Shown piece after piece: positions 10,538 to 40,289 of a DNA stretch of 64,000 bases (position 1 is the first letter of the stretch; each line of letters begins with the position of its first letter). This DNA is from a virus. Lineage: Duplodnaviria; Heunggongvirae; Uroviricota; Caudoviricetes. The stretch lies in IMG/VR virus record IMGVR_UViG_3300042561_000621; one strand, given 5' to 3'. The notes under the pieces are model-generated. The model saw only the letters and a list, made by a program, of their open reading frames with translations. It did no database searches and had not been told where the DNA came from. Made by a program: the position numbers and the translations under genes.

Positions 10538-11407
10538 ATGGCATCTAAAAGAATTAGTCAATTGCCTCCTGCATCTTCTGTATCAGGCAATTCATTATTA
10601 GCTATTGTTAATAACAATGTAACTGAAAAAGTTACTATATCTCAACTACCTTTAGGTATTACTACAGTTAATAATTTAGGAACTGGAGCTTCATTAGGAT
10701 TTATAGCAGAAAATCAATTAAAGTTAAAAACTTTAATAGCTGGAACTGGTTTATCGTTTACAACAAGTTTTAATAGTGTTACATTAAATACAATATTTAA
10801 TGTTAATAATGTAGGTAGTGGAACCTCACTTATAAATTCATTTACTAATCCTAATCTAGCTTTAAAGTCTATAACTGGATCTGGTAATATTACTATAACA
10901 GATAATACTACTAGTATTAATATTGCTAGTACACCATTAACAACTTCTAATACTGGTAGTGGAACATCATTTATAAACTCTTTTACTAATAACAACTTAG
11001 CTTTAAAGTCTATAACTGGATCAGGTAGTATAACAGTTACAGATAACACTACTAGTATTAATATTGCTAGTACCCCTGTAACAAGTTCTACTACAGGTTC
11101 TGGAACTTCTTTTATAAATTCATTTACTAACTCTAATTTAGCTCTCAAATCAATAACTGGATCAGGTAGTATAACTGTAACTGATAATACTACTAGTATT
11201 AATATTGCTAGTACCCCTGTAACTGCTTCTAGTAGTGGTTCTGGTACATCCCTTATAGATTCATTTACCAACTCTAATCTAGCTTTAAAGTCTATAACTG
11301 GATCAAATGGTATAATAGTTACAAATAATACTACTAGTGTTGATATTGCTAATACTAATAATATAAATTTTGCTCAAATTTTAGCAATAGGAATGCTTAA
11401 ATGTTAA
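10538..11407 (+). CDS. repeat-containing fibre-like protein (4 tandem copies of a ~41-aa unit)
   Basis: TSFINSFTNSNLALKSITGSGSITVTDNTTSINIASTPVT repeated four times; antisense ORF 10714..11271 is a shadow. Confidence 0.6.
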   Translation: MASKRISQLPPASSVSGNSLLAIVNNNVTEKVTISQLPLGITTVNNLGTGASLGFIAENQLKLKTLIAGTGLSFTTSFNSVTLNTIFNVNNVGSGTSLINSFTNPNLALKSITGSGNITITDNTTSINIASTPLTTSNTGSGTSFINSFTNNNLALKSITGSGSITVTDNTTSINIASTPVTSSTTGSGTSFINSFTNSNLALKSITGSGSITVTDNTTSINIASTPVTASSSGSGTSLIDSFTNSNLALKSITGSNGIIVTNNTTSVDIANTNNINFAQILAIGMLKC

Positions 11408-18319: not shown

Positions 18320-19717
18320 TTAAATTTTCATAATATATGCTAGGGCATAATAAGGAGGTAAATTATTAGTTGTAGCAGTAGTAGTTGAAAATCCATGAGT
18401 ATGCCCTCCATTAGAACCAGCAGATGCAACACTAATATTAGTAGTATTTAATGTACTATTTGCATAGGGAGGATTAACCCAGGTATCACCAGGTTTACCA
18501 GGCGCTCTAGATTCAAAAGTTGATCCAGTAGCAAAAAAAGCATACCCACCAACTATATGATTATGACCAGGATCATTTACAGTATGAGTATGTGCTGGCA
18601 TTTGACTAACAGTTAAAGTAGTAGCATTACTAGTACCACTTAAGGTATGAGTATGATTAATAGTACCACCAACAGAATTAACAGAATAAAGAGAGCCAGC
18701 ACCTACTATAAATCTATTTCTTAAGTCTGGGGTATTGTTTGTACCATCACAATTATGAACTAAGAAACCATTAGCAATAAAAGAATGATTATCTTCTACT
18801 TCAATATCATATTTAATATCATAAATTCTTCTATTCTTTTTAGAAGAATGTAATTCACTTATTGCTTTCTTTTCAACTGTAAAAGTTACTAAATCTTTAG
18901 AAGTAGAATCATATCTAAGTATTTTATCTCCTGTATTTACATATTCTGTTTTAGTCCATCCTTTATTAACAACCCAAACAGGATGATCTTTGGTTAAAGT
19001 TAGAGATTTAGGACCTAATCCTTTTGCTTTAGCTACTTTTAATTTATACCAAATAGATCTATCTTCAACTTTGTTCTTAAACCAGTTAATAACTTTTTTA
19101 TGTTCTAATTTACCAGTGCTTTCATTATATGAAACAACTTCAACTGCTAATTTATTATTAACAATATCTTGTATTTCCATAATACTACCATCAGACAATA
19201 AGACTTGAGAATCACCTAATAAACAAAGCTGCCAAGAAATAGGAATAGCACTAGTTAAACCACTCCAAACTACAATAATACCCATTGCAATTCCAAGTTC
19301 TAATGTTATTATTCTACCTTCTATTGATAATAATCTACTATTAAATGAACTAACAGTATTATTTAAAGTATTAAAAGAATTAACTAAATTAGCAATTTGT
19401 TGAGCTTGCTCAGCTATAGTTGCATTTTGATTATTAACTAATGTTGTAATTGCATCAATATTACTCTGTAATGAAGATTGAACATCTGCTAAATCTTGTG
19501 CAGTTTCTCCAATAGCACTAGCATTATTAGCTATACTACTATTTATACTATTTATAACATTAGTTTCAGATAAACAAGTGTTTAAACTTGCACTATTAAT
19601 TTTAGAACAATTAAGTTCTCCAGTTGCATTTGCTAAATCTAAGACGTAGTCATAGTTTGAGTCAACCTCTGAACATGAAAGGGGACTGCCCTTAGTGGAT
19701 ATTTTTATCAGACTCAT
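18320..19717 (-). CDS. phage tail-collar-domain protein carrying a mini-intein
   Basis: The N-extein ends ...AIPISWQL and the C-extein starts CDGTNNTPDLRNRFIVGAG. Joined, they match the collar consensus IPxGWxLCDG..TPDLRGRF. HTHT/HNH repeats and a Gly-rich stretch lie downstream. Confidence 0.75.
   Translation of the reverse strand: MSLIKISTKGSPLSCSEVDSNYDYVLDLANATGELNCSKINSASLNTCLSETNVINSINSSIANNASAIGETAQDLADVQSSLQSNIDAITTLVNNQNATIAEQAQQIANLVNSFNTLNNTVSSFNSRLLSIEGRIITLELGIAMGIIVVWSGLTSAIPISWQLCLLGDSQVLLSDGSIMEIQDIVNNKLAVEVVSYNESTGKLEHKKVINWFKNKVEDRSIWYKLKVAKAKGLGPKSLTLTKDHPVWVVNKGWTKTEYVNTGDKILRYDSTSKDLVTFTVEKKAISELHSSKKNRRIYDIKYDIEVEDNHSFIANGFLVHNCDGTNNTPDLRNRFIVGAGSLYSVNSVGGTINHTHTLSGTSNATTLTVSQMPAHTHTVNDPGHNHIVGGYAFFATGSTFESRAPGKPGDTWVNPPYANSTLNTTNISVASAGSNGGHTHGFSTTTATTNNLPPYYALAYIMKI
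18752..19225 (-). mobile_element. mini-intein (158 aa, Hint domain, no homing-endonuclease domain)
   Basis: It begins with block A CLLGDSQVLLSDGS and ends ...GFLVHN before the +1 Cys. It is inserted exactly inside the conserved W-x-L|C-D-G collar motif. Confidence 0.7.
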
Positions 19718-19799
19718 TATATTATTTTTTATAAATTATGTTATAATAAATATTATCAAATAAATGATAATACATAAAATAAGCTAATTTAATAATACA

Positions 19800-21038
19800 A
19801 TGAGAAAAAATAAAGATAAAGGTATTTATAAAATAATAAATATTATTAATAATAAATATTATATAGGTTCTAGCGTTGATTTACAAAGTAGAAAAGCAAA
19901 TCATTTTAGAAAACTAAAAACAAATAAACATCATTGTGTTCATCTTCAAAATGCTTGGAATAAACATGGAGAAGAAAACTTTAAATGGGAAATAGTAGAA
20001 ATACTAAATGATTTAGATTTAGCTGAAATTAGAAAAGTAGAACAAAAATATATTGATGCTGATTTTAATAATCAATATAATATTGCAAAAGATACTATGG
20101 CTCCAGGAATTTATTCAGAAGAAGTAAAGCAAAAACAAATTAATGCTTGTAGAGATACAATAAGACCTAATAACAAAACAGGTCATACAGGTATTCATTA
20201 TTCAGAAAAAGAGAAAGATTATAGACCCTCTATACAAGTTTGGGGTATTAGAGTATTTCTTGGTTCTTATAAAACATTACAAGAAGCTATTAATAAAAGA
20301 AAAGAAGCTGAAGAATATTTTTGGCAACCTTGTATAGAAAAATTATCTAAAGAATTAAAACAATTAATTGTTAAACAATATAAAGAAGCTAATAAAATAG
20401 CTAGATCTAATACAAATGTTGAAGGAGTTGTTTATTCTAAAGATAGAGAATACACAGCTTATATAACAACTAAAGACAATATAGCAATTCATTTAAGTAC
20501 TAATCTAACTTTTAAACAAGCCTTAAAAGTTAGAAAAGAAGCAGAACAATATTTTTATTCAGAAGAATTTATAAATTTATCTTTTCAACAAAAAGAAGAA
20601 GCTATAAAACAATACAAAGACAAATTAAAAGGATGTAGAAATAAATCTGGCCATAAATTTGTTATATGGAATAAAAATACAAATGATTGGGTAGTTAAAC
20701 CTTTTATTGATAATAAATTAATAATGCTTGGCTATTATAAAGATTTGAATAAAGCTATAAAAGTAAAAAATGCGGCTTTATTATATTTTAACTCTACTGA
20801 ATTTTTATCTAATAATTTAGAAACTAGATTACAATTAGCACAAAACTATAAAAAAGAATGTTTATTAAATAAGAATAAAGATAAAGAACAAGGAATTTGT
20901 TATATTAAATCTAAATCTATTTGGAGGGCTTATATATTTTACAATGGTAAAAATATATCTTTAGGTCAATATCCAACTAAAGAAATGGCTCTTCAAGTTA
21001 GAAAAGAAGGAGAGTTAAAATATAGAAATAATACTTAA
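19800..21038 (+). CDS. free-standing GIY-YIG homing endonuclease with four AP2-like DNA-binding repeats
   Basis: GIYKIINIINNKYYIGSS...R...N GIY-YIG core, followed by four repeats of the type YRPSIQVWGIRVFLGSYKTLQEAINKRKEAEEYF; it lies on the strand opposite to its neighbours. Confidence 0.75.
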   Translation: MRKNKDKGIYKIINIINNKYYIGSSVDLQSRKANHFRKLKTNKHHCVHLQNAWNKHGEENFKWEIVEILNDLDLAEIRKVEQKYIDADFNNQYNIAKDTMAPGIYSEEVKQKQINACRDTIRPNNKTGHTGIHYSEKEKDYRPSIQVWGIRVFLGSYKTLQEAINKRKEAEEYFWQPCIEKLSKELKQLIVKQYKEANKIARSNTNVEGVVYSKDREYTAYITTKDNIAIHLSTNLTFKQALKVRKEAEQYFYSEEFINLSFQQKEEAIKQYKDKLKGCRNKSGHKFVIWNKNTNDWVVKPFIDNKLIMLGYYKDLNKAIKVKNAALLYFNSTEFLSNNLETRLQLAQNYKKECLLNKNKDKEQGICYIKSKSIWRAYIFYNGKNISLGQYPTKEMALQVRKEGELKYRNNT

Positions 21039-22982: not shown

Positions 22983-24401
22983 CTAATTATCTATTACTAA
23001 TAATTCACCAAATAAAGGAATATTACTCTCATTGTATTCCTTTTCTAATACTGTCCATATAACCTGTATAGAACCTTTATTATTAAATGGTTCTAATTCT
23101 TGTGGAACTCTTTCTAAGTATAAATCTGTTAATACAACAATTAAACATACATTATTAATATCAACTTGTTCAAAACCTTTATTAATAAACTGTTTAAAAA
23201 GAGGTATAACATCAGTACCTCCACCTCCTACTAAGTATTTATCTTTATGTTCTAATAACACATCAATAAGAGGTCTATCTAACTCACTCATATTAAATAA
23301 ATGAGTACCAGTAATGCTATCATCAAATGTTACTAAAAGTAAATTACCAACAACTTTACTAATACTATTAATTTGATCTAAGAAGTGATTTAAACATTCA
23401 ATGGAGCCATAAATACTACCAGATAAATCAACAAATACAGCTATTGTATCTGGCTCTGGCAGTCTAATATAAGGATGGTTAATAGCACATCTATTAAAAG
23501 GAGATAAACCCATTTCATAACCATAAAACTCCTCCTCGCTAACAATATTATAATTAGTTATAATCTTATCTGATAAAGAATTAGAAGCTATTTGTTTAAG
23601 TCTATCCTCCCATCTTAAATCACTACTTTGAATAGAATCTACATCAGAAGGTATTAACTTATTAGATAACTTTCCATGTTGCTTTTTCTTATCATTTCTA
23701 ATAGCATTAGCAGCCTTTTTAGTCAGATCTTTAAGGATTTCTTGTTGTTCTTCATTATTGTTAGTAGAATCAGCTTCTAAAACATCAAGATCTATCTCTT
23801 CTAACTTTATAGTAAGACCAGATGGTAATGTAATAGTATCTAAGTCATCATTATTACCATCTTGTTGTTGTCCCTTATTACTACCTCCACCACTAAACTT
23901 ACTATTAGTTAACACATAAGCAAGTAATTGTTCTTCTGTCCAATTATTATCATTAATTCTTGGATGATCTTTTTCTAAAAAAGTGGATAAAAAGACACCG
24001 CCTAAGTCACCAAAAGTATAACCCGCCTCTTTTAATGATTGATTAATAATAGCATCTTCAACTAGATTAAGTATATGGTTTAAGAAGTAAGCTTTATCAG
24101 CATATTGTTTATACAAACCCTTATTATGAAGACCAAATCTATAACTATGATTAAGATATATATGATACATCTCATGCAAAGTTAAAGTTATAAACTCACT
24201 TAACTTACTACTATCAGCCTCAATTTTATTAATGTAAGACTTATTATACATAATAGTATTATTAGTACAAGCTGCATAAGCAAAGTCATAATCCCCTATC
24301 TTAATACTAATAGCAGATAACAAATAAGCAAAAAATGGTTCAACTTTATTAACTAATAAATATATAGTTTTATCAGTAATCTTAAAACTTAGTTTAGACA
24401 T
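22983..24401 (-). CDS. VWA-domain protein with N-terminal zincin-like HExxH motif (DUF2201-like partner of a MoxR ATPase)
   Basis: TLHEMYHIYLNH (HExxH) and the MIDAS motif VDLSGSIYGS; overlaps the upstream AAA+ gene by 8 nt. Confidence 0.6.
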   Translation of the reverse strand: MSKLSFKITDKTIYLLVNKVEPFFAYLLSAISIKIGDYDFAYAACTNNTIMYNKSYINKIEADSSKLSEFITLTLHEMYHIYLNHSYRFGLHNKGLYKQYADKAYFLNHILNLVEDAIINQSLKEAGYTFGDLGGVFLSTFLEKDHPRINDNNWTEEQLLAYVLTNSKFSGGGSNKGQQQDGNNDDLDTITLPSGLTIKLEEIDLDVLEADSTNNNEEQQEILKDLTKKAANAIRNDKKKQHGKLSNKLIPSDVDSIQSSDLRWEDRLKQIASNSLSDKIITNYNIVSEEEFYGYEMGLSPFNRCAINHPYIRLPEPDTIAVFVDLSGSIYGSIECLNHFLDQINSISKVVGNLLLVTFDDSITGTHLFNMSELDRPLIDVLLEHKDKYLVGGGGTDVIPLFKQFINKGFEQVDINNVCLIVVLTDLYLERVPQELEPFNNKGSIQVIWTVLEKEYNESNIPLFGELLVIDN

Positions 24402-25674
24402 TGCTATTTTTTATACCCATATCAACTGTAGATTTAGTAACAATATGTTCATTTATAATCTTTTCACAGTCTTCTATTAACTGATAATAAACATTAACCC
24501 TAGAATTAGCCATTAACATATCAAACACATTACTAATAGTTGCTGGAGTATTAATGCCCTCTTTAAATTTAGTAGATATCAGCTTATCAAGTACTTGCAT
24601 AAGATTACTAATTGGTGGATAAACATAAGTCATCTTACCTTTTTTATTATAATTGACTTCAATCTTACCTTCATCTTTTAATTTTACAAAGGTTGTCATT
24701 CTATTATTAATCTCTTGATAAACAGTGAAAATAACACTACTTACAGCTTCTAAGTTGGCTGTAATATGTTTACTATAATCAACTGACTTATCTTTACAAG
24801 TAGACTCTAAAAACTCAATAGAAGGAATATTTAAAGTACTATTTAAACTTCTAATAAAGATATTAGATAAACTACTACCAATAAGACCGCTAACATTTTG
24901 AGTAAAACTCTCTTTATACTTATTGTCTAACACATTAACAGTTAATTTATATAACATATCAGACACAGCAGACCAAGTTCTAGGACAAGGATTAACATAG
25001 TTATTACTATTAGCACCATAACCTACAAACTCAGTTGGAATACCACCATTAGCTGCTAAGAACTTACTATCATTAGTGATTGCCCACTTCCTATCTTTTA
25101 AAAATGCATGAACACTAGGGTGATTATGATTTGCACTATATTCTAAGTATTCTTCAACATTAAGTTGTACTTCTAAAAGCACCAATCTACTAATAATAGG
25201 ACTACTAATATTAAATACATTAGCATTATCACTAGCTCTATTAGTGGCACCAACAATGATAAACTTATCAGTTGGTAAGTCATAGTTACCAAGCTTTCTA
25301 TCACCCAGTAGTTGCTGCAAAATCATCATCTCTTGAGGATTAGCATTAGCAAAGTCATCTAGAAACAATAGAGTCTTTTTATCATTATTAATAGCATTGT
25401 TATACCATTCAGCAACATAATGAGTACAAGCTTTTGTTTCAGGATCAATAAAATCAACGCCATAGATATTAGATTTAGTGATTAAACCTCCTGTAAATAC
25501 AACAATGTTATAATCATTATCTTTAGCATATTGATAGATTTTAGCTGATTTACCAAGACCAGGAAAGCCCATAAACAAACAACTTCTATTAGTATAACTA
25601 GCAAGTTTAATTTGCATAGGAATACTATTTAAAGTAATCTCCCCACCATTAAAATTTGACAACTTATTTGACAT
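24394..25674 (-). CDS. MoxR/AAA_5-type AAA+ ATPase
   Basis: Walker A FMGFPGLGKS, Walker B LLFLDDF, and a sensor region ...VGATNRA. Confidence 0.7.
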   Translation of the reverse strand: MSNKLSNFNGGEITLNSIPMQIKLASYTNRSCLFMGFPGLGKSAKIYQYAKDNDYNIVVFTGGLITKSNIYGVDFIDPETKACTHYVAEWYNNAINNDKKTLLFLDDFANANPQEMMILQQLLGDRKLGNYDLPTDKFIIVGATNRASDNANVFNISSPIISRLVLLEVQLNVEEYLEYSANHNHPSVHAFLKDRKWAITNDSKFLAANGGIPTEFVGYGANSNNYVNPCPRTWSAVSDMLYKLTVNVLDNKYKESFTQNVSGLIGSSLSNIFIRSLNSTLNIPSIEFLESTCKDKSVDYSKHITANLEAVSSVIFTVYQEINNRMTTFVKLKDEGKIEVNYNKKGKMTYVYPPISNLMQVLDKLISTKFKEGINTPATISNVFDMLMANSRVNVYYQLIEDCEKIINEHIVTKSTVDMGIKNSNV

Positions 25675-27215: not shown

Positions 27216-27483
27216 TGATAAATCCTTTATTATATACTTCTTTTTCTAAGGAACTAAACAAATTGATAATTTCTGCTTGAATAATTACAAATTGATTATT
27301 AGTAAAATTATCTTCTAAATACCCATCATCATATTTTATATATAATGATGATGGGTTAATATTTAGCACAACTGCAAATTTAATAATAGGATTATATTTT
27401 AATGAATTATCTAAAGCTAGTTCAGCTATAGCTAATCTATCATTTAAATTAACCTTTTTTCCTTGTCGGTCTACTATAATCAT
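27208..27483 (-). CDS. hypothetical protein (91 aa)
   Basis: ORF. Confidence 0.35.
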   Translation of the reverse strand: MIIVDRQGKKVNLNDRLAIAELALDNSLKYNPIIKFAVVLNINPSSLYIKYDDGYLEDNFTNNQFVIIQAEIINLFSSLEKEVYNKGFINV

Positions 27484-27787
27484 TTAACAATTCCTCTTTA
27501 ATATTAAAATACTTAATAATCTTATCTTTAGTATTACTAATAGTATTAACACCATTAATCATACCTGATAAATGTCTAGGTTTAATACCTAAATCACTTG
27601 CTACATCTTGTTGTCTTTTACCAGTTAATTTAGTAAGAACACCTAATGTATAAGCTCCACTTAGTACTCTCCAATGAGTAATAAAAGACTCTGCAATAGC
27701 TCTATCTTCAACACTTAACTTATCATTATTATAATCAAACTTTAGGGCTTTATACTCAGCCAAATTTTTAGGATATGTAATAGTCAT
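27449..27787 (-). CDS. XRE-family helix-turn-helix transcriptional regulator
   Basis: LTGKRQQDVASDLGIKPRHLSGMINGV is a canonical HTH_3 motif. Confidence 0.6.
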   Translation of the reverse strand: MTITYPKNLAEYKALKFDYNNDKLSVEDRAIAESFITHWRVLSGAYTLGVLTKLTGKRQQDVASDLGIKPRHLSGMINGVNTISNTKDKIIKYFNIKEELLNDYSRPTRKKG

Positions 27788-27861
27788 TGTTATTCTTTAA
27801 CTCTTATATGTGTAACATGTATGTATATATATTAATGTGCAAACTTAAAGTGGGTATGTAT

Positions 27862-28248
27862 TTAATTCCACTCTTCCCACATAGCTAAAACAAGCTGTAA
27901 TACATTAGTTAAATCTGAATAAATCTCTTTATGATAAGATTCTTTTAGACTATTACTAATAGTTATTAAATTAATTAAAGAGTTAAACTCTATTAAAGTA
28001 AAACCCTTCATGTTTAAATATTTACTAATAGAAATAATCTTTTTTAATTTGGGCCCTTTAGTAGGATATAAATTAAAATAATCTTCTACATTCTTATCAA
28101 GGTATAAATTAAAACCTCTTAGAGGAGAATATATAATAAGTCTTATTTCATCATTTGAAGCATAGTTTTTATTAGCTGATAAGATATAATTAGTTATACT
28201 TTTCTTTTTAAACTTTTCTTTAAAGCATTTAATATAGATAGGTTGCAT
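27862..28248 (-). CDS. paralog-family protein 1 of 5 (conserved C-terminal LQLVxAxWxxWN)
   Basis: N-terminus MQPIYIKCFK and C-terminus ...VLQLVLAMWEEWN. Confidence 0.5.
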   Translation of the reverse strand: MQPIYIKCFKEKFKKKSITNYILSANKNYASNDEIRLIIYSPLRGFNLYLDKNVEDYFNLYPTKGPKLKKIISISKYLNMKGFTLIEFNSLINLITISNSLKESYHKEIYSDLTNVLQLVLAMWEEWN

Positions 28249-28254
28249 ATTAAT

Positions 28255-28644
28255 TTAGTTCCAGTCATCCCATTTAGCAATTATAAGTTGCAATAACTCA
28301 ACTAATTTAGAAGCCGAGGGCCAACCAGGTCTAATATTACTTTCTTCAATCATCTTTTCTAGTAAATATATTAAATCATAAAACTCTATTAAACTAAAAT
28401 GTTCTACATCTGCATACCACCATTCTATAGACCTTGTATTGTAAACTTCAACTATTTCATAATCTTTATTTACTTTTAAATTTATAAACAGTTCATCATA
28501 GTTATAGAACTGGGTTAAATATATAAATTTATCTAGGTTAATAGGATTATTACTATCTACTATAAAGTATTTAATATGACTTTTAACTTCATCCTTAGTT
28601 TTAAACTTATAAATGTATATAGGTTTTAACATACTTAATTCCAA
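28255..28644 (-). CDS. paralog-family protein 2 of 5
   Basis: C-terminus ...LLQLIIAKWDDWN. Confidence 0.5.
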   Translation of the reverse strand: MELSMLKPIYIYKFKTKDEVKSHIKYFIVDSNNPINLDKFIYLTQFYNYDELFINLKVNKDYEIVEVYNTRSIEWWYADVEHFSLIEFYDLIYLLEKMIEESNIRPGWPSASKLVELLQLIIAKWDDWN

Positions 28645-29036
28645 TCATCCCATTTAGCAATTATTAATTGTATTAAATTAATTAATTCTTCTTTTGCACA
28701 AAAAAAAGAAGGACAAAAAATATAAAAGCTCTTATTAAAATCTCCATCTCTTAATTTATAAAACATGTCTAACATACTTAATACTTCTTTAAAAGTTAAA
28801 TCTGTATACAACATTATATTAGTTTTATTTCTATTAAAATTTGATACTTTACTCCATTCTACTAATATATCAAATTGAAGAATGTAACTATTAGTATCAA
28901 CAAGTTGAATGTTTACAGGAAATAGATTTAAGTTATCTATAACTTCTTCTTTATTAGTTATTGCTAAGTAGTAGATAGTCTTATTAATTCTAGTTAAAGT
29001 GGTTCTTTTACATAATTTATATTTAACTTCAAACAT
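28635..29036 (-). CDS. paralog-family protein 3 of 5
   Basis: C-terminus ...LIQLIIAKWDDWN. Confidence 0.5.
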   Translation of the reverse strand: MFEVKYKLCKRTTLTRINKTIYYLAITNKEEVIDNLNLFPVNIQLVDTNSYILQFDILVEWSKVSNFNRNKTNIMLYTDLTFKEVLSMLDMFYKLRDGDFNKSFYIFCPSFFCAKEELINLIQLIIAKWDDWN

Positions 29037-29047
29037 AATTTAACATA

Positions 29048-29410
29048 TTAATTCCAATCCTCCCCTTTAGCTACAATCAACTGCAATACATTTGTTATAT
29101 GGTCATAATATTCAGATTTATTACAATCTTCTAATAAGTCAATTAAAGAATTAAAACTCATTAAATGAAATCTTTTAGTCTTTTTATTAAGAGATACAAC
29201 ACTATCTAAGTTATACCACGCAGTAGTCCAATCTTCACTAATAGTAAAATAAGACTTATTTATAATTTTGTTAATATAAATTTTAGTTTTTAAATTAATA
29301 GAATTTACTATGCAAAACAACTTATCCTCTGGATTATAGTTTTTAGTATCTAATAAAATATATTTATTTAAATGTTCTAGCTCAAATTTATAAAGGTATA
29401 TAGGTTGCAT
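29048..29410 (-). CDS. paralog-family protein 4 of 5
   Basis: N-terminus MQPIYLYKFE and C-terminus ...VLQLIVAKGEDWN. Confidence 0.5.
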   Translation of the reverse strand: MQPIYLYKFELEHLNKYILLDTKNYNPEDKLFCIVNSINLKTKIYINKIINKSYFTISEDWTTAWYNLDSVVSLNKKTKRFHLMSFNSLIDLLEDCNKSEYYDHITNVLQLIVAKGEDWN

Positions 29411-29779
29411 CTAATACCACTTATCCCATTTAGCAATTACAAGTTGTAATAACTCAATTAATGTATGTTTATTATAATGAAAACTATTATTTACATCTTT
29501 AATAACTAATAATAATTCATCAAATGTTATAAGTCTTTTATTATTTAAATATCTATTAGGTAAACTAAAAGATTTAGTCCAAAAGAACATATTGTCATAA
29601 TTAACTACACTTTCACTAATAAAAATAATTCTAAATTCACTAATATTTAAAACTTGAAACTTATAATCAAATGCTTTTGGATTATTAAAAGTATATGCAG
29701 TCAAGATTATAAAACAACATTCATTAAAATTAGTAATTGATTCTTTAATATAAATGTATATTGGTTTTATATTACTCAT
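29411..29779 (-). CDS. paralog-family protein 5 of 5
   Basis: N-terminus IKPIYIYIKE and C-terminus ...LLQLVIAKWDKWY. Confidence 0.5.
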   Translation of the reverse strand: MSNIKPIYIYIKESITNFNECCFIILTAYTFNNPKAFDYKFQVLNISEFRIIFISESVVNYDNMFFWTKSFSLPNRYLNNKRLITFDELLLVIKDVNNSFHYNKHTLIELLQLVIAKWDKWY

Positions 29780-30177
29780 TTAACCTTTAAATTAACTCCT
29801 TTTTTAGCTATAGCCCTTTTATTATTATAACTATTACCTTTATGCACTGCATCTATTTCCAACTGTTCTAATAATAATAGCTTCTCCTTAGTAATACTTT
29901 TATCTGCTACTACAAGTACATTAAATGTAAAATTAACAAGGCCAAATTTATTAAAATCTTCTTGTAATCCTTTATTACTATGTTTGTTAAACATTAAATT
30001 AGTAATATGACTATTCCATCTAGCTGTTAAATTAGTTGAACTGCCAATATATTTTTTATTATTAGAAGTACAAGTAATGCAATATATACCAACTAACTTT
30101 AGTTTTCTATAAGAATAAGCTTTACTTTTAGATGTAGTATTATTAGAGCTTTTTTTAGTTTTAATATTTGTTGTCAT
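29776..30177 (-). CDS. small GIY-YIG endonuclease (133 aa)
   Basis: VGIYCITCTSNNKKYIGSSTNLTARWNSH. Confidence 0.65.
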   Translation of the reverse strand: MTTNIKTKKSSNNTTSKSKAYSYRKLKLVGIYCITCTSNNKKYIGSSTNLTARWNSHITNLMFNKHSNKGLQEDFNKFGLVNFTFNVLVVADKSITKEKLLLLEQLEIDAVHKGNSYNNKRAIAKKGVNLKVK

Positions 30178-30250
30178 AATCTATTCAGTTTATTTACTTT
30201 ATAAAAGTTATTATTAATGAATAGATTATAACATAAGAAAAAAGAGTGTT

Positions 30251-30556
30251 TTATTTTTTATTCTCAACTTTAACTGAAAGACAGTGCCAAGCCTTACTTT
30301 CACCTTCTACAGGAACTAGCATAACTTTTCTTTTTGTTTTTCCACTTTTCTCTGCTCTTCCATAGCAAGTATTTAATGCATCAGATCTTCTTTCAGTACG
30401 AATAATATCTCCTAAAAAAGATACATCTTGACGGCGTTGAGCAACCTTAATAATATCTGATTTGTAATTATTTGGCAATGTTAAATCTGTCATTGCTGCA
30501 ACAACAGGAACTTGAATTGAAAAAATTAATGTAATAATACTGATAAATGATTTCAT
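30251..30556 (-). CDS. small secreted protein (signal peptide MKSFISIITLIFSIQVPVVAA; two Cys)
   Basis: Internal Met gives a 101-aa product with an N-terminal signal peptide; the local GC content is visibly higher than in flanking DNA. Confidence 0.45.
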   Translation of the reverse strand: MKSFISIITLIFSIQVPVVAAMTDLTLPNNYKSDIIKVAQRRQDVSFLGDIIRTERRSDALNTCYGRAEKSGKTKRKVMLVPVEGESKAWHCLSVKVENKK

Positions 30557-30612
30557 AACTGTAATTGTGAATGTATTTATTAAAAGATTATATATGAAAT
30601 AAAAACATAACA

Positions 30613-30645
30613 TTGTTTATGTTTATGTTTATGTTTATGTTTATA
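30613..30645. repeat. (ATGTTT)5 hexanucleotide tandem repeat
   Basis: Read directly from sequence, upstream of gene 30251..30556. Confidence 0.8.
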
Positions 30646-31353: not shown

Positions 31354-31599
31354 TTATTTTTTATCCCAATTGTTTTTGCTTTGTATATTACCAATGTTTT
31401 CTAGAAAATCTTCAGGTGAAAAAGTTTTAGATGATTCTTTTCTTTCATATTTTATAGTTTGCAAAGCAACAAATTCTACCGCCCACATTTCATCATTAGA
31501 GCAGTAAGTATTTATATCTTCTGAAGGTATAAAAACACCACAAATGATTAAATACTTACCTGATCTTCTAATAAGGGCTTTACCCTTAAACATTTCCAT
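31354..31599 (-). CDS. small protein overlapping the stop of the SPFH gene; possible NfeD-like partner
   Basis: The 1-nt stop/start overlap with the SPFH gene mirrors bacterial stomatin-NfeD pairing; no strong motif. Confidence 0.3.
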   Translation of the reverse strand: MEMFKGKALIRRSGKYLIICGVFIPSEDINTYCSNDEMWAVEFVALQTIKYERKESSKTFSPEDFLENIGNIQSKNNWDKK

Positions 31600-32387
31600 T
31601 ATTGTTTGTTAGTATTAACAATAACAGGTGTTGAGCCTCCAGTAGAACCTCCAACTGTAAATACAGAACTATTACCATTCCACTTCTTAATAGCAGCATC
31701 TTGAAGCAGTACAGGTGTTAATGATTGACTGATAATACTATTATTCTTAGCAATTGTATTAGCAGTTTCTAGATCAATCTTAGCCTGTTCTTGTCTTTGA
31801 ATAGCAATAGCCTTTAATTCAATTGCTTGTTGTACTTCAGGATCTAATACAAGACCAGTTACTACAAAGTTTTGTAGAATTACAACAGATTGAGCTTTTA
31901 AACTACTATTAATACCTTCTTCAATTTCATCTGCAATTGCAGCTTGATTAGCAATAATATGACTAATAGGGTACTTAGCAATAACTTGTTTAACTACTGC
32001 TAATAAAGTAGGTTGTAATGCTACATTTTTAATAATCTCACTATCTTTATCTTTATCACCTGATAGAATAACCAGTTTTGCAGTTTGAGCAGCATGTAGA
32101 CCATTAATATTGTAATTAGCAGTAGCTGTAATTGTAACTTGTTGACCGTCTGATGTTAGAGATGTAAACTTCTCTGGCACTGATTTAGTACTAACATCCA
32201 ATTGTTTAGTAGATGTAATAAATGGTGTAACTAAATTCAAACCAGGAGTAAGAATTTGTTGTTGTGCTTCACCAAATCTATATACAGCATGTACAGTGCC
32301 TTCTTGAACTGGTACAATAGATCCAAAAGCTACTGATGTAATAATAGTAATTACAGTAATACCACTAATAAGTTGAATAAGATTCAT
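31599..32387 (-). CDS. SPFH / band-7 (stomatin/prohibitin/HflK-C-like) membrane protein
   Basis: N-terminal TM helix, then VPVQEGTVHAVYRFGEAQQQILTPGLNLVTPFI (the SPFH core signature) and a coiled-coil C-terminus. Confidence 0.7.
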   Translation of the reverse strand: MNLIQLISGITVITIITSVAFGSIVPVQEGTVHAVYRFGEAQQQILTPGLNLVTPFITSTKQLDVSTKSVPEKFTSLTSDGQQVTITATANYNINGLHAAQTAKLVILSGDKDKDSEIIKNVALQPTLLAVVKQVIAKYPISHIIANQAAIADEIEEGINSSLKAQSVVILQNFVVTGLVLDPEVQQAIELKAIAIQRQEQAKIDLETANTIAKNNSIISQSLTPVLLQDAAIKKWNGNSSVFTVGGSTGGSTPVIVNTNKQ

Positions 32388-34674: not shown

Positions 34675-35185
34675 TTTGTTCTATTTTTATATAAGTTAAA
34701 GCTTCATCTTTAGTTTCAAAGAATTTATCTAAATACTGACCACCAAACTTTAAAAAGTTTTTATCATTATTAAACATTTGATTTATAGATCTTGCATTAA
34801 CTTGATAATGTACATGTTCAGTTAATATATAATCATATTCTTTATCACAAACTGATTCTAAATATTTATATATTCTAGTAACATTTATGTTAAATAGTTT
34901 ATTATATTTAACTTGATAATATGTTTTACCTTCTTCAAAGAACTTATAAATTCTATTATCAATGTGTTTAACTTTATCTAAATTAGCAACTATAATGTTA
35001 TCTATAAGCTGTCTTATATGATCATTAGAATAGTTTAATTCATCTTCAGTATAAGCATAATCAGAGTACTTAGATTGCAACTTATAAATAGTAACAGGCA
35101 CTACTTGTAGATTACTTTTAACTAGATCTAATACACTAGGATTTATATCTTGTAGCTCTAATAACTCATTAATATTAATAGTCAT
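34658..35185 (-). CDS. hypothetical protein (175 aa)
   Basis: ORF. Confidence 0.4.
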   Translation of the reverse strand: MTININELLELQDINPSVLDLVKSNLQVVPVTIYKLQSKYSDYAYTEDELNYSNDHIRQLIDNIIVANLDKVKHIDNRIYKFFEEGKTYYQVKYNKLFNINVTRIYKYLESVCDKEYDYILTEHVHYQVNARSINQMFNNDKNFLKFGGQYLDKFFETKDEALTYIKIEQNGQAN

Positions 35186-35760
35186 AAGTTAAAGGTGTCC
35201 CCTTGTGTAATAACACCCTGTAAGATGTTAGTAATAACATCACTACTAAAGTTTATAATATTACTTAGTTGATTCTGTTCAAACTCTGTAAAATTTGATA
35301 AAACCCAATCTAATATAGTACTATTAACAGGCTGTCCAATACCAATCTTAAATCTAATAAACTCTTCTGTTTGTAACTCTTTAATAATACTTTTAACACC
35401 ATTATGACCTCCAGCAGAGCCACCTTCTCTTAATCTAATAGTGCCAAATGGTAAGTTTATATCATCATGTATAATAAGTACCTGTGAAGGCTGTAAACAC
35501 ATCTCTTCCATTGTATTTCTAACAGATAAGCCGCTATCATTCATACCTCCTATAGAGGGTTTTAAAAGAGCTACTAATTGTTTTTTACCAATATATAAAG
35601 GACCTCTATAAATACTATTACAATAAGTTTCACTTGATATTACTCCGTATTCTTTTATTAAGTTATCAATAACTCTATAACCAATATTATGTCTAGTCTT
35701 AGAATAATTTAAACCTCTATTGCCTAACCCAACTACAAGTTTTATATTACTAATTGTCAT
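35182..35760 (-). CDS. pth: peptidyl-tRNA hydrolase (bacterial Pth type)
   Basis: LVVGLGNRG..YSKTRHNIGY and HDDINLPFGTIRLREGGSAGGHNGVKS match the Pth catalytic His/Asp signatures. Confidence 0.8.
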   Translation of the reverse strand: MTISNIKLVVGLGNRGLNYSKTRHNIGYRVIDNLIKEYGVISSETYCNSIYRGPLYIGKKQLVALLKPSIGGMNDSGLSVRNTMEEMCLQPSQVLIIHDDINLPFGTIRLREGGSAGGHNGVKSIIKELQTEEFIRFKIGIGQPVNSTILDWVLSNFTEFEQNQLSNIINFSSDVITNILQGVITQGDTFNL

Positions 35761-36872: not shown

Positions 36873-37190
36873 TTAGTCTTCATCTTCTAAGTAGTAATCA
36901 TCATCACTATCATAATATGAATAGTCTTCATCTTCTAAATCACCATCCCCATCATAATCACCTAATGAAGGAACATTATAACTCCTATAAAGCACTTTAT
37001 CAATTTCACCCTTATCATATGTATATTCTGATAAAGGAGTATAAGCACAAGTTCTAATTTTACTATTGTTATAGTCTCTAGGAATAGCAACAATGTCTGC
37101 TGGATCTACTTCACATAGTAGAATAGCATCATGTCCTGACACTGCTGAACCATAGTGAGGTAAGTATTGCCAACTGCAAACGTGTCAATT
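36873..37190 (-). CDS. 3' exon of split gene C (C-terminal acidic tail); function unknown
   Basis: The frame is open upstream of the annotated start (HVCSWQYLPHYGSAVSGHDAILLCEVDPADIV...) with no ATG, and the exon lies downstream of a LAGLIDADG-bearing intron. Confidence 0.45.
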
Positions 37191-38038
37191 TTTGTTATCT
37201 TAAGGGCTTTTTATCCCCTAATTCTAATCCTTTCGGTTTATAATGATTTAATAAATAATTATTATATTTTCTATTTATTGATAAACATTTACTGTAATAA
37301 ATTTCAGATAAGAATCTATTACCACTTACTTTTAAAGTTAATTTATAAGTGTTATTTTGTTTACTAATAGAAAAGCAGTTTCCATAATTATTTAATATAT
37401 ATTGGCTTAGTTGATTAATAAAAACTTCACTTGCTGATACTATGCAAGCTTGTCTACTTAAACAACCATCTCCATCCCAACAACCTCTTATTAAATCAAG
37501 CATATAAATACTATCTATATTAGGCAAACTAACAGTAAAAGATTTCTTCTGAGTAATTGAATATTTCTCTAAATCTTTAACCATTTGTTTACATCCAATA
37601 CATAACAAAACGTATTTATCTTCTATTACTTTAAGACAATAATTATCTACACCTAAATCTAAAAGAAATTTATCTAATATATCTTTATCTTTTATGTGTA
37701 GTTTTATATTTACTGTTTTGCCTCGATGGATATATCCATCACTTAAAATAAGTCCAAGAAAATAAGCTTTATTTGAAGAATCTATATTTTCAAAGTAATT
37801 TTTGGGCCAATTGTATTTAATCATTATATATTAGTTCAGACTATCTCTTCATCCTATTATACTATAGGATGTCCCTGCCTCGTGGATTTATTATATTCTG
37901 ATACTTCTATCAGGTTCAAAATCTAGTCGTTGCACCTGGTTAATATATTATTACTAACCTTCAGTTGCTGATTGCCATATACTATTATTAGTACTTAGGT
38001 TTCCAGTTTATTTCAGGGATTTATTACCTATTAATTAC
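37191..38038 (-). mobile_element. group I intron carrying a LAGLIDADG homing endonuclease gene (boundaries +/-20 nt)
   Basis: An S-like GAAGAGAUAGUCUGAAC and an R-like GCAACGACUAG element (minus-strand RNA) are present. It shares the sequence blocks tagtcgttgca and agttcagactat with the GH19 intron. The core is GC-richer than flanking DNA and has no ORF. Confidence 0.55.
37195..37824 (-). CDS. LAGLIDADG homing endonuclease (double-motif)
   Basis: AYFLGLILSDGYI and LIRGCWDGDGCLS. Confidence 0.75.
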   Translation of the reverse strand: MIKYNWPKNYFENIDSSNKAYFLGLILSDGYIHRGKTVNIKLHIKDKDILDKFLLDLGVDNYCLKVIEDKYVLLCIGCKQMVKDLEKYSITQKKSFTVSLPNIDSIYMLDLIRGCWDGDGCLSRQACIVSASEVFINQLSQYILNNYGNCFSISKQNNTYKLTLKVSGNRFLSEIYYSKCLSINRKYNNYLLNHYKPKGLELGDKKPLR

Positions 38039-38041
38039 TTA

Positions 38042-38638
38042 ATAGGAGGCCACTACATTTAGCCCATGACTACAAGTTTGATCAATATTATCATCAACAA
38101 AGTTCCTCTGTACCACTACAGGAACATTAAACATTTGTTTAAATGTCTTTGTATATAAATCAAGAAACACTTCTTTATCATCTGTTCTCTTTACAATCTT
38201 ATACATGATTAAGTTGCCCTTTTCATTGATAACAATGTTATTAGCTTCAATGAAGTCAAACAAGCATCTATTAACCCTATAAGAAGGATTAAGTCTAACC
38301 TTTTCCCAGAACTTAATTAAAGGTGTAATAGAAGACTCATCTTGTTCATACATTGCAATAAGTGTTTTGTTTAAAGATGGTGGTAATTGTTCTACTTGGC
38401 CCTCTTTATTAGTATATGTTACTAAACCTTCTCTAGTAATAGTAACACCTAACTTAGTACTAACTTGAGTTACAACATCAAATAGTTTAATAATAGCTTC
38501 TTCATCTTTATTTCTAATAAGTTCTAATACTTTATTATACTTATCTTCATTTGTATATTTATGTATTGTTACTGGTTTGCCCTTTACAATTATATTTAAT
38601 GTGTTATTTGTGCTATTTAAAATATAGTTAATTGTCAT
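38042..38638 (-). CDS. 5' exon of split gene C (200 aa); function unknown
   Basis: ATG at 38638 overlaps the stop of the upstream gene; the product ends ...QTCSHGLNVVASY at the intron boundary. Confidence 0.45.
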
Positions 38639-40289
38639 TTGTTTCTTCTTTTTCTGTATTATTATTTTGATGTTTGTTATAAAAATCAACTAACTCAATG
38701 TAGTGTGTAATATGACTTTTATTTTGTATATTATTATAACCATAAGAATTAATACTACCTTTAATAATAGGATATGTATTATCTATATCTTGTATTAAAT
38801 CCCTCATATTAAAAGCGCCATGTTTAAGTTCTAACAGACCTTCACTAATAAAATGATTTATTAACTGTTTATGTTTTAACTTAGTATCAAATACTTTAGC
38901 ATCTTCTAAAAACATTGTTATAGGATGATTAGGATGTTCTTTAATAAAATCTGTTTTATATTCAATTTCATTAATATAATTAGATCTATAACTGTTTAAA
39001 TATAAAGTAAAGTTACTATTTAAAACACTAAAATCATCTAGTATAAGTTGAATTAAATCAGTCCAACTATCTTTAACAAGACTTACATCATTAACAACAT
39101 ATATGTCTTTATTTATATAATTAAATAGTAAGGGTTTTAAATAAGTATTAACATACTTACTATAAAAGTCCATTGATATATAATAAACATTCTTACTTAG
39201 CAACTCTTTACTAATGTTTAATTCTCTACCAATCTCACCATCATATGTTGATAATCTATAACACTTTTTGTTTGTTTTAACTGATGCTTTTCTAACTTTA
39301 GTTGCTTTAACAAGTCTATCAACTGGTAAGAAATTAGATAAACATGGTAAATTATAGTAATTATTATCAATGTTATTAACAAGAATAATCTTACTAAGAT
39401 CTGATTCTACATCTTCACATTGTTCTAACTCTTTAACTGTTGGAATATAATTTAAATCATTGTAATAATATATTTTAGAGCTATAAAAACGTTCACCATA
39501 AGTAGAAGTATAAGGATTACATTTATAACTCTTTTTAGTACTTAGGTATCTAACAATATCACACAACCATTTTCTATCACTAACAGTTTTACCACTCCAA
39601 TTAACACTATCAGTATTAAAGTTATTCTTATATAAGAAAGTTAAAACATCTGTAAAACATGTAAAATCTTTAACTTTAATAGCAACTAACTCTTTATAGT
39701 CTTCTACTATTTGAGTGATTAAAGAACATAATGTATTCTTTGTTCTAGTACTAAGTTGTACATTCTTATCAGCAGCTTGATCAATGGAGCCAATAGGTAT
39801 ATTAAACACTACAGCATTAGTTCTTAATCTAGATTCAATATAGCCATATACATCACTATTTAAAGTATATTTTAAGTCTTGTAATTTAATATAGTTAGGT
39901 AAACCACCAATTAAACCCACCAAATTGTTAGCATTTGCAAAAGATGTAGCATGTGTTTTAAATGATTTAAACTCTTCATTATAGATTGGTGGCTGAACTA
40001 AAACACCATCAATGTTTACATTAGTTAAGTATTTAGTATGTTCTTTAACATAGTTAGATAAAGTAGTAAAGTCTTCATTTTTAATCTCAAATGAAATAGA
40101 AACACCCGTTAGTTCTTCTTCATTGTTAGTTACATTTTCTTCTAGTAATAGAGAAACAAAGACTTTATTGTTGTCTTTACTAATTACATACTCTCTCTTA
40201 TACTTGGCACCATCACTATCAATTGTAATACAAGTAGCAGTGTATAAGTCTGTATATGCTAAAGGTGACATTCTGCCAATTCCTACATG
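38628..40289 (-). CDS. GHKL-family ATPase, GyrB / type II topoisomerase ATPase-subunit-like, 3' exon
   Basis: In the joined product DVLGG|IGRMSPLAY resembles the G2 box (GGLHGVGVSVVNALS); LSTRTKNTL resembles the transducer QTK loop (SSQTKDKL); LYTATCITIDSDGAKYKREY resembles LELVIQREGKIHRQIY. Confidence 0.45.
   Translation of the reverse strand, partial: HVGIGRMSPLAYTDLYTATCITIDSDGAKYKREYVISKDNNKVFVSLLLEENVTNNEEELTGVSISFEIKNEDFTTLSNYVKEHTKYLTNVNIDGVLVQPPIYNEEFKSFKTHATSFANANNLVGLIGGLPNYIKLQDLKYTLNSDVYGYIESRLRTNAVVFNIPIGSIDQAADKNVQLSTRTKNTLCSLITQIVEDYKELVAIKVKDFTCFTDVLTFLYKNNFNTDSVNWSGKTVSDRKWLCDIVRYLSTKKSYKCNPYTSTYGERFYSSKIYYYNDLNYIPTVKELEQCEDVESDLSKIILVNNIDNNYYNLPCLSNFLPVDRLVKATKVRKASVKTNKKCYRLSTYDGEIGRELNISKELLSKNVYYISMDFYSKYVNTYLKPLLFNYINKDIYVVNDVSLVKDSWTDLIQLILDDFSVLNSNFTLYLNSYRSNYINEIEYKTDFIKEHPNHPITMFLEDAKVFDTKLKHKQLINHFISEGLLELKHGAFNMRDLIQDIDNTYPIIKGSINSYGYNNIQNKSHITHYIELVDFYNKHQNNNTEKEETNDN

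Follow-up and report, generated by a model that had tools for sequence, protein, structure and literature searches.

In T4-type phages, the polymorphic internal-protein (IP) locus is reportedly hypervariable. The IP proteins are unrelated or diverged small proteins that have one short conserved terminal segment in common, and at least IPI* acts in counter-defence. What they share is a capsid-targeting peptide at the N-terminus, ending in a prohead-protease site, which is cleaved off. A different organization is found in acr-aca operons, in which anti-CRISPR genes are followed by the gene of the HTH regulator Aca (PMC6765145, PMC9410906, PMC8633003). SegB, a GIY-YIG homing endonuclease encoded beside the tandem tRNA array of T-even phages, promotes segmental amplification via microhomology (PMC13096335). 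'Genomic accordions' are reported in phage (10.1101/2022.04.14.488369) as well as in poxvirus (Elde 2012, via PMC13096335).

The locus described here has features in common with each of these systems. It is located on the minus strand of a 64 kb stretch of phage DNA, further called the window, where five adjacent paralogous ORFs of 120–133 aa occupy positions 27862–29779, as the first-pass annotation had reported. In the direction of transcription these are W5 (29411..29779, 122 aa, class D, tail LLQLVIAKWDKWY), W4 (29048..29410, 120 aa, class C, tail VLQLIVAKGEDWN), W3 (28635..29036, 133 aa, class A), W2 (28255..28632, 125 aa, class E, tail LLQLIIAKWDDWN; the copy used for modeling) and W1 (27862..28248, 128 aa, class B, usually the last cassette, tail VLQLVLAMWEEWN). 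The start of W2 is most likely the ATG at 28632, giving 125 aa, rather than the TTG at 28644. Pairwise identity between the five proteins is 15–39%, and BLASTP E-values of 1e-5 to 1e-14 indicate that they are homologous beyond chance. Among all ORFs of the window, a profile of the family picks up these five genes only, and neither the profile nor BLASTP yields an additional member in the 64 kb beyond the array. The family has metagenomic relatives (n = 74), one of which, P0002, is identical to W1; every source annotation reads 'hypothetical protein'. Stop-start gaps between the array genes are typically 0–2 nt, with GGA or GGGA motifs 8–15 nt upstream of the next ATG. The isoelectric points of the five copies (4.9, 6.3, 6.3, 8.5, and 9.3) are so widely spread that no common physicochemical mode is apparent. 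DNA mimicry by acidic anti-restriction proteins of the Ocr, ArdA or Arn type was rejected, as the copies are not uniformly strongly negative.

The five C-terminal 13-mers are exactly those quoted in the first-pass annotation, which called the tail strictly conserved. The tail is indeed almost invariant, but this wording is too strong, because W4 has AKGEDWN and W1 has AMWEEWN. In W4, Gly replaces Trp121, a residue that is otherwise 99% conserved and that is retained in the ortholog from L008, a related genome. The N-terminal motif proposed for all copies, i.e., a (Q/K)PIY start, is present in four of the five; W3 differs, as it has a 16-aa extension, with MFEVKYKLCKR at the N-terminus and KTIYY at residues 19–23.

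That the paralogs belong to no known family was borne out by searches of Pfam, PHROGs, NCBIfam, PADLOC, and PDB sequences, none of which gave a significant match. The best E-value is 0.013 in Pfam-A, far below gathering scores, 0.0039 in PHROGs v4, to a family of unknown function and over 35 residues only, and 0.88 in a PDB sequence profile search; NCBIfam 20 gave noise only and PADLOC 2.0 zero matches. In Pfam and NCBIfam, a nucleic-acid-binding signature is absent from the paralogs. The AF2 model of W2 (pLDDT 94, pTM 0.88) consists of four β-strands followed by helices, with the PIYIY motif as core strand β1 (pLDDT above 90) and the tail as helices 107–119 and 121–124. No whole-domain structural neighbor of this model is present among PDB and BFVD folds. 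The array family is a previously undescribed one, the predicted fold of which is confident yet unmatched. The model of W3 is of low confidence (pLDDT 48) and does not confirm the shared fold for class A. The family is limited to one clade of uncultivated AT-rich jumbo phages with contigs of up to 257 kb. A blastn search of the locus against phages came back empty, i.e., without close cultured relatives, and the best match of the PolA protein of this phage, to Microcystis phage LMM01, has approximately 30% identity. Pattern scans of IMG/VR, GTDB genomes and JGI metagenomes for further loci or a hint of the host resulted in pattern matches and zero confirmed relatives.

The first gene of the unit (29776..30177, minus strand) encodes an I-TevI-like, catalytic-domain-only GIY-YIG nuclease of 133 aa. 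Its family assignment is solid (Pfam GIY-YIG, E 3.5e-10; TIGR01453, 67.6 bits, above the cut-off) and it adjoins the array as described before, but it precedes the array in transcription order rather than following it. Its stop codon overlaps the W5 start by 4 nt (ATGA). The TIGR01453 alignment covers model positions 3–88 of 215 only, and the protein ends approximately 15 residues past the domain, the linker and C-terminal DNA-binding domain being missing. In the PDB, the nuclease is closest to the catalytic domain of I-TevI (1mk0, E 6e-8). Residues Y32, Y43, R53, H57, H66, E104, and N118 are invariant in seven orthologs and, with all catalytic residues kept, the enzyme is predicted to be catalytically intact. 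The orthologs are 76–90% identical over the whole protein and 84–89% over the shared domain, with a dN/dS of 0.20–0.24 that reflects purifying selection. The gene adjoins the array in 7/7 genomes that cover this array end (L008 is cut there), and six of these show the stop-start overlap with the first array copy. The sporadic, mobile distribution of a homing endonuclease is not seen in these seven genomes. The nuclease is a syntenic, catalytic-domain-only enzyme under purifying selection and not a roaming homing gene. By contrast, a 412-aa GIY-YIG and AP2 protein encoded elsewhere in the window (19800–21038) does have a DNA-binding domain.

At its other end, the slot is closed by a conserved gene for a probable Xre-type helix-turn-helix protein of 112 aa (27449..27787, minus strand). 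The evidence for this assignment is weak but concordant, as all matches fall on residues 53–86: Pfam HTH_3 (0.003), a PHROG transcriptional repressor (0.001) and, weakly in the PDB, the HTH of 8dtq (0.11–0.14) and KorA (0.29). Its relatives are all at least 63% identical and restricted to the phage clade, and the protein has no Pfam domain on record. The intergenic block between the array and this gene (27788..27861, minus strand) contains an invariant ACTTTAAGTTTGCA (27838–27851), followed by ATTAATA..ATACAT. The core of the block is identical in 8/8 genomes despite differing neighboring cassettes, and within the window it is not repeated above chance. From its sequence, the block is a candidate promoter or operator. 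Upstream of the unit, a perfect extended -10-like motif, TGTTATAAT, is located at 30225..30233 (minus strand), about 50 nt from the GIY-YIG start, and is kept as TATGTTATAAT in the window and in three relatives (L005, L010, and L011). As a candidate host-sigma70 (early) promoter of the operon it is suggestive only, since the window has no excess of the 9-mer (3 occurrences versus 5.4 expected). In a scan for sigma70 promoters and terminators, promoter-like sites were less frequent than in shuffled sequence and the minus strand gave no terminator, but such a scan is uninformative in DNA of 22–27% GC.

In eight genomes, the array occupies one fixed slot bounded by the GIY-YIG gene and the probable HTH gene. 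The slot is never empty and holds 3–8 copies from 19 sequence classes, of which class A (W3) is the only one present in all eight (65–73% identity). Copies and classes turn over even between close relatives. L008, whose nucleotide identity to the window is 97–100% across the flanking genes and the three complete cassettes that both have, carries an extra cassette, and W5 (cassette D) is missing from L005, the closest complete relative, as a clean one-cassette indel. A hybrid D/C recombination joint in L005 at this point was considered and rejected, since the genome has a class C copy there that carries the position-1 prefix and a 2-nt frameshift in a TA run. Other decayed-looking copies have truncated tails or the W121G substitution. 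The N-terminal prefix tracks array position and not class, as it should if cassettes are exchanged, gained and lost via breaks in conserved junction sequences. Altogether, the locus is a cassette-wise recombination mosaic, in which the differences stem from old, diverged cassettes being gained, lost or swapped, with breakpoints that likely lie at the conserved cassette junctions. The array also evolves faster than its surroundings, with pN/pS values of 1.14 and 0.65 versus 0.27 and 0.22 for the flanking genes (Fisher p 3e-5 and 3e-12). These rates, together with the turnover, agree with the earlier description of a diversifying multigene family. As to selection, the array is above its flanks, but its pN/pS does not significantly exceed 1 (binomial p 0.85), so that relaxed constraint is also compatible with the data.

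The explanation that we tentatively favor, and to which we give somewhat less than an even chance, is that the array is an early-operon birth-and-death family of host-directed accessory proteins that share one scaffold or docking helix. These small proteins would be specific to one AT-rich jumbo phage clade and would be encoded in one tightly packed, probably early predicted operon, with the GIY-YIG gene first and the probable HTH regulator gene after the array. Each copy would have the same compact α/β fold, in which an invariant scaffold or docking element would be formed chiefly by the C-terminal helix (LLQLIIAKWDDWN in W2), together with the PIYIY N-terminal strand and Phe84, and the approximately 90 middle residues would vary from class to class. 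Each variable body may then recognize a different target, with the shared helix contacting a common partner or holding the fold. From context only, we infer that the copies are host-directed, i.e., involved in counter-defence or host takeover.

The tail had been proposed to be a conserved interaction peptide, but it is modeled as a structured helix within a confident fold and not as a free peptide. β-clamp-binding QLxLF-like motifs and the acidic C-terminal tails of SSB/gp2.5-like proteins were considered as counterparts and set aside, because the modeled helix is well packed and not a disordered end. A portable peptide on other phage proteins was rejected, the motif being confined to the five array genes; a weak profile match at the Pth C-terminus is not the tail motif. 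The conserved termini might also stem from gene conversion or from an element repeated at the DNA or RNA level, such as a promoter, terminator or recombination site, as the tail of each gene and the head of the following one make up a contiguous conserved junction of about 60–70 nt. However, the tail DNA is only 60–74% identical between copies, Rfam gave no match, and the last cassette keeps its tail although no family member follows. Moreover, synonymous sites in the tail are saturated and as diverged as elsewhere (pS 0.56 versus 0.53 in the body), with a pN of 0.19 versus 0.48, which places the constraint at the protein level rather than the DNA level. This interpretation is largely refuted and we consider it highly improbable. 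A rather unlikely alternative is that the genes are ORFans that drift near-neutrally without any specialised role, and that their tail and PIYIY strand are kept for fold and translation only. The tail codons TGG GAT GAT TGG AAT would then provide a G-rich ribosome-binding stretch and a tight stop-start coupling for the next cistron, which is in line with the short gaps and GGA/GGGA motifs in the array, and drift would suit the decayed copies and a pN/pS near 1, not significantly higher, in the closest comparison. On the other hand, orthologous classes persist across deep divergence, as class A does in every genome, pN/pS versus L005 is significantly below neutrality (0.65, p 0.003), the slot is always filled and the last tail is retained with nothing of the family downstream. 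The tail is also more conserved than other core elements, its polar residues far more so, which hints at function.

Other explanations assign a larger role to the nuclease. The first-pass annotation suggested that it drives duplication of the array, and breaks made by it could indeed cause accordion-like duplication of the adjoining genes. SegB is a precedent (PMC13096335), copy number differs between close relatives such as L008 and L005, within the overall range of 3 to 8, and the joints of rearrangements seem to lie where cassette junctions have conserved microhomologies. Near-identical tandem copies are nevertheless not found, the DNA repeats being 60–74% identical. The most similar pair within any genome is 29–48% identical, so there are no recent duplications, and variation involves old cassettes. 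As the nuclease is syntenic and has no recognizable DNA-binding domain, we regard this as quite unlikely. A role of the nuclease in cassette turnover is possible by analogy, given the same precedent and the junction-localised recombination at this locus. In the most far-reaching form of such a role, which we rate as a long shot, the nuclease would be domesticated and would nick or cut the conserved tail- and head-coding junctions. Recombinational repair between co-infecting relatives would then shuffle, insert and delete counter-defence cassettes, all of which would plug into one common partner via the invariant helix. The fixed slot, the 19 classes, the likely junction breakpoints, the intact nuclease, always at the 5′ end, and the SegB example allow this scenario. 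Alternatively, although we hold this to be unlikely as well, the array proteins may be exchangeable partner subunits of the nuclease, i.e., targeting adaptors or inhibitors. Their invariant helix would dock on the conserved enzyme, leaving specificity or timing to be determined by the variable body. That variable proteins keep an invariant motif does imply a partner that is invariant too, and the nuclease adjoins the array wherever this end is covered, mostly with a stop-start overlap. It has lost the DNA-binding domain on which I-TevI-type enzymes depend, but purifying selection acts on it and the catalytic residues are all retained. The paralogs, however, have no nucleic-acid-binding signature, and the nuclease (pI 10.1) could bind DNA unaided through its basic extensions at the N- and C-termini. 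To our knowledge, there is no precedent for 3–8 alternative subunits of one small enzyme.

If the favored explanation of a host-directed birth-and-death family is correct, the array is a natural and compact illustration of the way in which a large phage maintains a variable repertoire of host-directed proteins, with one fold, one invariant handle and many bodies, in a fixed slot of which the junctions permit whole-cassette swaps. It would also extend the recent finding that a homing endonuclease is able to remodel adjacent anti-defence loci, and cassette shuffling by the nuclease, if true, would make the locus the phage counterpart of integron-like or polymorphic-effector arrays. The analysis also yields a new family of proteins, whose confidently predicted fold is unmatched, as well as a GIY-YIG enzyme reduced to its catalytic domain and kept under purifying selection beside the array. 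Since phage and host are uncultivated, practical work will need surrogate hosts or in vitro approaches.

Compared to the known systems, the array resembles the SegB locus in that a GIY-YIG gene is located directly beside a tandem array of varying copy number with microhomology at the unit boundaries. SegB is a full-length, sporadically distributed homing endonuclease, whereas the nuclease described here is catalytic-domain-only and syntenic in every genome covering it. Its catalytic domain aligns with those of I-TevI and group I intron GIY-YIG endonucleases (TIGR01453, PF01541), with conserved catalytic residues. Unlike I-TevI, it has no linker, zinc finger or HTH DNA-binding domain and is neither intron-borne nor sporadic. 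Accordions consist of near-identical recent repeats, whereas the array copies are ancient, with 15–48% identity. As in the T4 IP locus, the array proteins keep one short terminal segment and differ elsewhere. However, their main shared segment is modeled as a C-terminal helix inside the fold, and their PIYIY motif as a core strand and not as an N-terminal capsid-targeting peptide. Like acr genes, the array genes are small, fast-evolving and clade-restricted, vary in number and identity, have no detectable homologs, and are located directly upstream of a conserved small HTH gene, with which they share the strand in 8/8 genomes, although the HTH assignment is weak. In contrast to acr-aca operons, in which Aca binds inverted repeats in the operon promoter, a conserved spacer of 74 nt separates the array from the HTH gene, the conserved block lies upstream of that gene instead of upstream of the variable genes, and every variable gene belongs to a single paralogous family, marked by an invariant tail.

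Five consecutive minus-strand ORFs make up the array, at 27862-28248 (W1), 28255-28644 (W2), 28635-29036 (W3), 29048-29410 (W4) and 29411-29779 (W5), and the last 13 residues of each, the tail, are exactly those quoted in the first-pass annotation. A few details of that annotation shift. The most likely start of W2 is ATG 28632, not 28644, which gives 125 aa, the length of the identical protein P0001 in the databases. The N-terminal PIY motif described as common to the copies lies internally in W3, behind a 16-aa extension, and the supposedly near-invariant tail deviates in W4, where Gly replaces the almost invariant Trp121. The GIY-YIG endonuclease gene (29776-30177, minus strand), placed after the array, is in transcription order upstream of it and overlaps the start of W5 by ATGA. 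The other four copies are 21-40% identical to W1 in a five-way alignment, and all pairs are 15-36% identical in a larger one.

The array family is the largest paralog family within the 64 kb, and a profile of the five paralogs finds no further member among the window ORFs. Searches of Pfam, PHROGs, NCBIfam, PADLOC and PDB sequences gave no significant match for the paralogs. A word-indexed search of 5.8 billion proteins yielded 74 relatives, all unnamed and 86-195 aa long; when 1.84 billion cluster representatives were searched exhaustively with a profile, only 40 came up, each consisting of a single domain and not fused to any known one. Public sources annotate family members as hypothetical. 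The family is new and clade-specific, and its confidently predicted fold is without match. The AlphaFold2 model of W2 (47-sequence alignment; pLDDT 94, pTM 0.88) predicts β-strands at residues 6-13, 18-25, 35-41 and 47-51, followed by a short helix, and helices at 84-100, 107-119 and 121-124, the last two forming the conserved tail. Foldseek matched this model to nothing in PDB or BFVD. The model of W3, which belongs to class A, is poor (pLDDT 48) and resembles W2 in the C-terminal helices only, so that one fold common to all classes rests on sequence homology.

The array occupies a fixed slot. Seven further distinct phage loci were recovered through exact look-ups of family members, on contigs of up to 257 kb, and the position of the slot is identical in the window and in all seven. 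Upstream are rIIB, a peptidyl-tRNA hydrolase, a Band_7 protein and the small GIY-YIG gene, a side visible in seven of the eight genomes, as L008 is cut at that end. Downstream come a gene of 112-114 aa, two smaller ones of 91 and 87 aa and two of about 180 aa, then the genes for an AAA ATPase and a DUF2201 protein. The genomes carry 3, 5, 5, at least 5, 6, 7, 8 and 8 copies, which fall into 19 classes when clustered at 45% identity. Read in transcription order, from the GIY-YIG gene to the probable HTH gene, the classes are D C A E B in the window, C A E B L in L008 (left end cut), C A E B G in L005, M H A in L013, I D F A N J K B in L010, I D F A J K B B in L011, O P F A G B in L004 and Q H C R S A B in L006. 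Class A is found in every genome and class B in nearly every one; the remaining classes come and go. The closest pair inside any one genome is only 29-48% identical, so none of the duplications is recent. The slot thus holds three to eight old, diverged cassettes drawn from 19 classes, packed tightly as an operon downstream of the conserved gene for the catalytic-only nuclease. A 120-aa ORF whose N-terminus is hydrophobic (30251-30613, minus strand) lies immediately upstream of the GIY-YIG promoter region; its ortholog in L005 is about 75% identical, and L004 and L006 have none, making it another variable gene at the slot edge.

Between the end of each tail and the next gene there are 0-11 nt, and the conserved N-terminus of that gene follows directly, which makes a DNA or RNA element at the junctions a real alternative explanation for the conserved termini. 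Such an element is very improbable. The five tails differ in synonymous codons; over ten paralog pairs, pS is the same in tail (0.56) and body (0.53); the array DNA repeats are merely 60-74% identical, and Rfam gave no match. Over the same pairs, pN is 0.19 in the tail and 0.48 in the body, and the almost invariant C-terminal helix is constrained at the protein level. Among 93 family members, mean column entropy is 0.87 bits for the tail, compared with 2.3-3.1 bits for the other secondary-structure elements, where the hydrophobic pattern is kept and residue identity is not. Essentially no variation is seen at F84, W121 and W124, and conservation at the polar residues Q115, K120, D122, D123 and N125 is 70-91%. 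A helical wheel, approximate because of a kink at K120, suggests a broad hydrophobic face (L113, L116, I117, W121, W124) and a narrow polar stripe (Q115, A119, D122, D123). Tail conservation exceeds what packing alone explains. The motif was found on no other window protein. In W4, codon 114 (29066-29068, minus strand) is GGG where 99% of the family has TGG; L001, the same phage from another sample, shares this W121G change, and the L008 ortholog retains Trp. The change may have disabled W4 or may simply be tolerated.

The array evolves faster than its surroundings. Compared with L005, its closest complete relative, the window has flanking proteins of 84-97% identity and array orthologs of 48-76%, W5 having no ortholog there. 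By Nei-Gojobori counts, pN/pS against L008 is 1.14 for the array, not significantly above 1, and 0.27 for the flanks (Fisher p 3e-5); against L005 it is 0.65, significantly below neutrality (p 0.003), and 0.22 (Fisher p 3e-12). The replacement rate of the array is therefore several-fold above that of its neighbours. These rates fit mixed purifying and diversifying selection, and partly relaxed constraint may play a part as well. Decay is also seen: the first copy of L005 is frameshifted, tails are truncated in the fifth copy of L010 and the fourth copies of L011 and L006, W4 carries W121G, and the database relative P0004 (195 aa, contig of 221,731 nt) is a fused copy. In P0004, a whole class C copy with a tail ending in AKWD continues in frame into the C-terminal half of the copy that follows, either by deletion across the junction or as an assembly artefact.

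Nucleotide identity between the window and L005 changes stepwise, cassette by cassette: flanking genes are mostly 93-98% identical (o120 and the HTH gene 87%), cassettes C, A, E and B are 86, 76, 88 and 66% identical, and D is cleanly absent. Synonymous divergence is uneven among GIY, C, A, E, B and HTH (chi-square p 0.004) and over 12 genes (p 2e-8), which indicates that adjacent genes have different histories through recombination. In five genomes and across five classes, the first copy after the GIY-YIG gene starts with MS(N/T/I)I(Q/K)PIYIY, and the prefix of class C tracks the upstream neighbour (MSNIQ-, MQ- or MLK-). The array is a cassette-wise mosaic with junction-associated joints, most simply explained by exchange, gain and loss that break in the conserved PIYIY-coding microhomology.

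The GIY-YIG protein passes the NCBIfam group I intron endonuclease model with only positions 3-88 of 215 covered, stops about 15 residues past the catalytic domain, and has the I-TevI catalytic domain as its nearest solved relative (E 6e-8). All I-TevI catalytic residues are invariant in seven orthologs, as judged against an I-TevI sequence that agrees with the PDB-search alignment at positions 4-75. The orthologs are 76-90% identical over the whole length and 84-89% over the shared domain, with dN/dS of 0.20-0.24. Intact residues, short length and constraint mark it as a catalytic-only enzyme that has been retained and is probably active, and not as a homing gene of the usual roaming sort. 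The window does contain one of the latter, the full-length, free-standing 412-aa protein with GIY-YIG and AP2 DNA-binding domains (19800-21038, plus strand), on the strand opposite the array and adjoining a tail-fibre gene; its catalytic domain and that of the nuclease beside the array share 33% identity, and relatives have versions of 418-426 aa at the matching place.

On the other side, the 112-aa protein (27449-27787, minus strand) has weak but concordant HTH matches, all within invariant residues 53-86; it is confined to the clade and at least 63% identical throughout. Between this gene and the last cassette, ACTTTAAGTTTGCA (27838-27851, minus strand, in intergenic 27788-27861) followed by ATTAATA..ATACAT is invariant in all eight genomes, the neighbouring cassettes differing. 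It begins with a 9-bp palindrome (ACTT-T-AAGT) and is a candidate operator or phage-specific promoter. The similar TTAAGTTTGA lies upstream of the GIY-YIG genes in L004 and L006, and TATGTTATAAT, a perfect extended -10, upstream of that gene in four genomes. Neither TATGTTATAAT nor the ACTTTAAGTTTGCA block is statistically enriched in the window.

The window (20-31% GC) carries genes for tail-fibre proteins, a family A DNA polymerase, an RNA ligase and homing endonucleases, and so derives from a tailed phage. Deposited phages offer no close relative: blastn of the locus matched none of them, and the polymerase is about 30% identical to its counterpart in Microcystis phage LMM01. Neighbouring paralogs also occur as two tail-fibre genes (11401-12762 and 12919-14205, plus strand; 59% identical over 351 residues; PHROG 4492) and as a second, small tandem pair of about 85-93 aa (54855-55136 and 55142-55399, minus strand; 44% identical, E 1e-17). 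The AAA ATPase and DUF2201 genes (22983-25674, minus strand) overlap at their ends and are conserved (77-95% identical across relatives); the DUF2201 protein combines a metallopeptidase-like N-terminal domain with a VWA-like domain, and its PHROGs label, HNH endonuclease, lacks Pfam support. The peptidyl-tRNA hydrolase gene (35182-35760, minus strand; Pfam 6e-52) shares an early-looking block with the SPFH/Band_7 gene (31599-32387, minus strand; 7e-25), which is absent or fragmentary in L005, L006 and L013. In the rIIB region (36873-38689, minus strand; ORFs 38039-38689, 37195-37824 and 36873-37142), rIIB is apparently interrupted by a gene for a LAGLIDADG endonuclease of 209 aa (Pfam LAGLIDADG_3, 1.6e-7); the flanking products (199+ and 89 aa) are both Phage_T4_rIIB by precomputed Pfam matches. 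As rIIB is whole (296-297 aa) in L004, L005, L006 and L010 and split likewise in L013 and L014, the insertion is a polymorphic mobile one, possibly an intron. Together with other endonuclease genes, an L005 gene with Intein_splicing and LAGLIDADG_2 matches (19030-20390, plus strand), downstream of the shared block, suggests a clade rich in selfish nuclease elements.

We tentatively favour a reading in which the array proteins would be early, host-directed accessory proteins, acting in counter-defence or takeover, with a common scaffold or docking helix and differing recognition surfaces. That they are ORFans evolving near neutrality, with a tail that serves in folding and translational coupling, seems rather unlikely: decayed copies and close gene spacing stand beside tail conservation beyond packing and a pN/pS below neutrality against L005. 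It is unlikely, too, that the paralogs are exchangeable partners of the nuclease. Duplication driven by the nuclease, as the first-pass annotation proposed, is compatible with host-directed accessory proteins and has a parallel in a SegB-adjacent array, where a GIY-YIG enzyme promotes rearrangement of anti-defence loci (PMC13096335); with within-genome copies so diverged, it appears quite improbable.

The array itself was a real observation, with more structure than that annotation could see. What makes it notable is an invariant handle on many bodies, cassette exchange localised at junctions and a domesticated nuclease. In layout, the slot resembles both acr-aca operons (PMC6765145, PMC9410906) and the SegB-adjacent array (PMC13096335), a likeness of layout that does not extend to some defining features of either. 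The locus is best grouped with those hypervariable accessory-gene loci of phages that have a regulator and a nuclease at their flanks.
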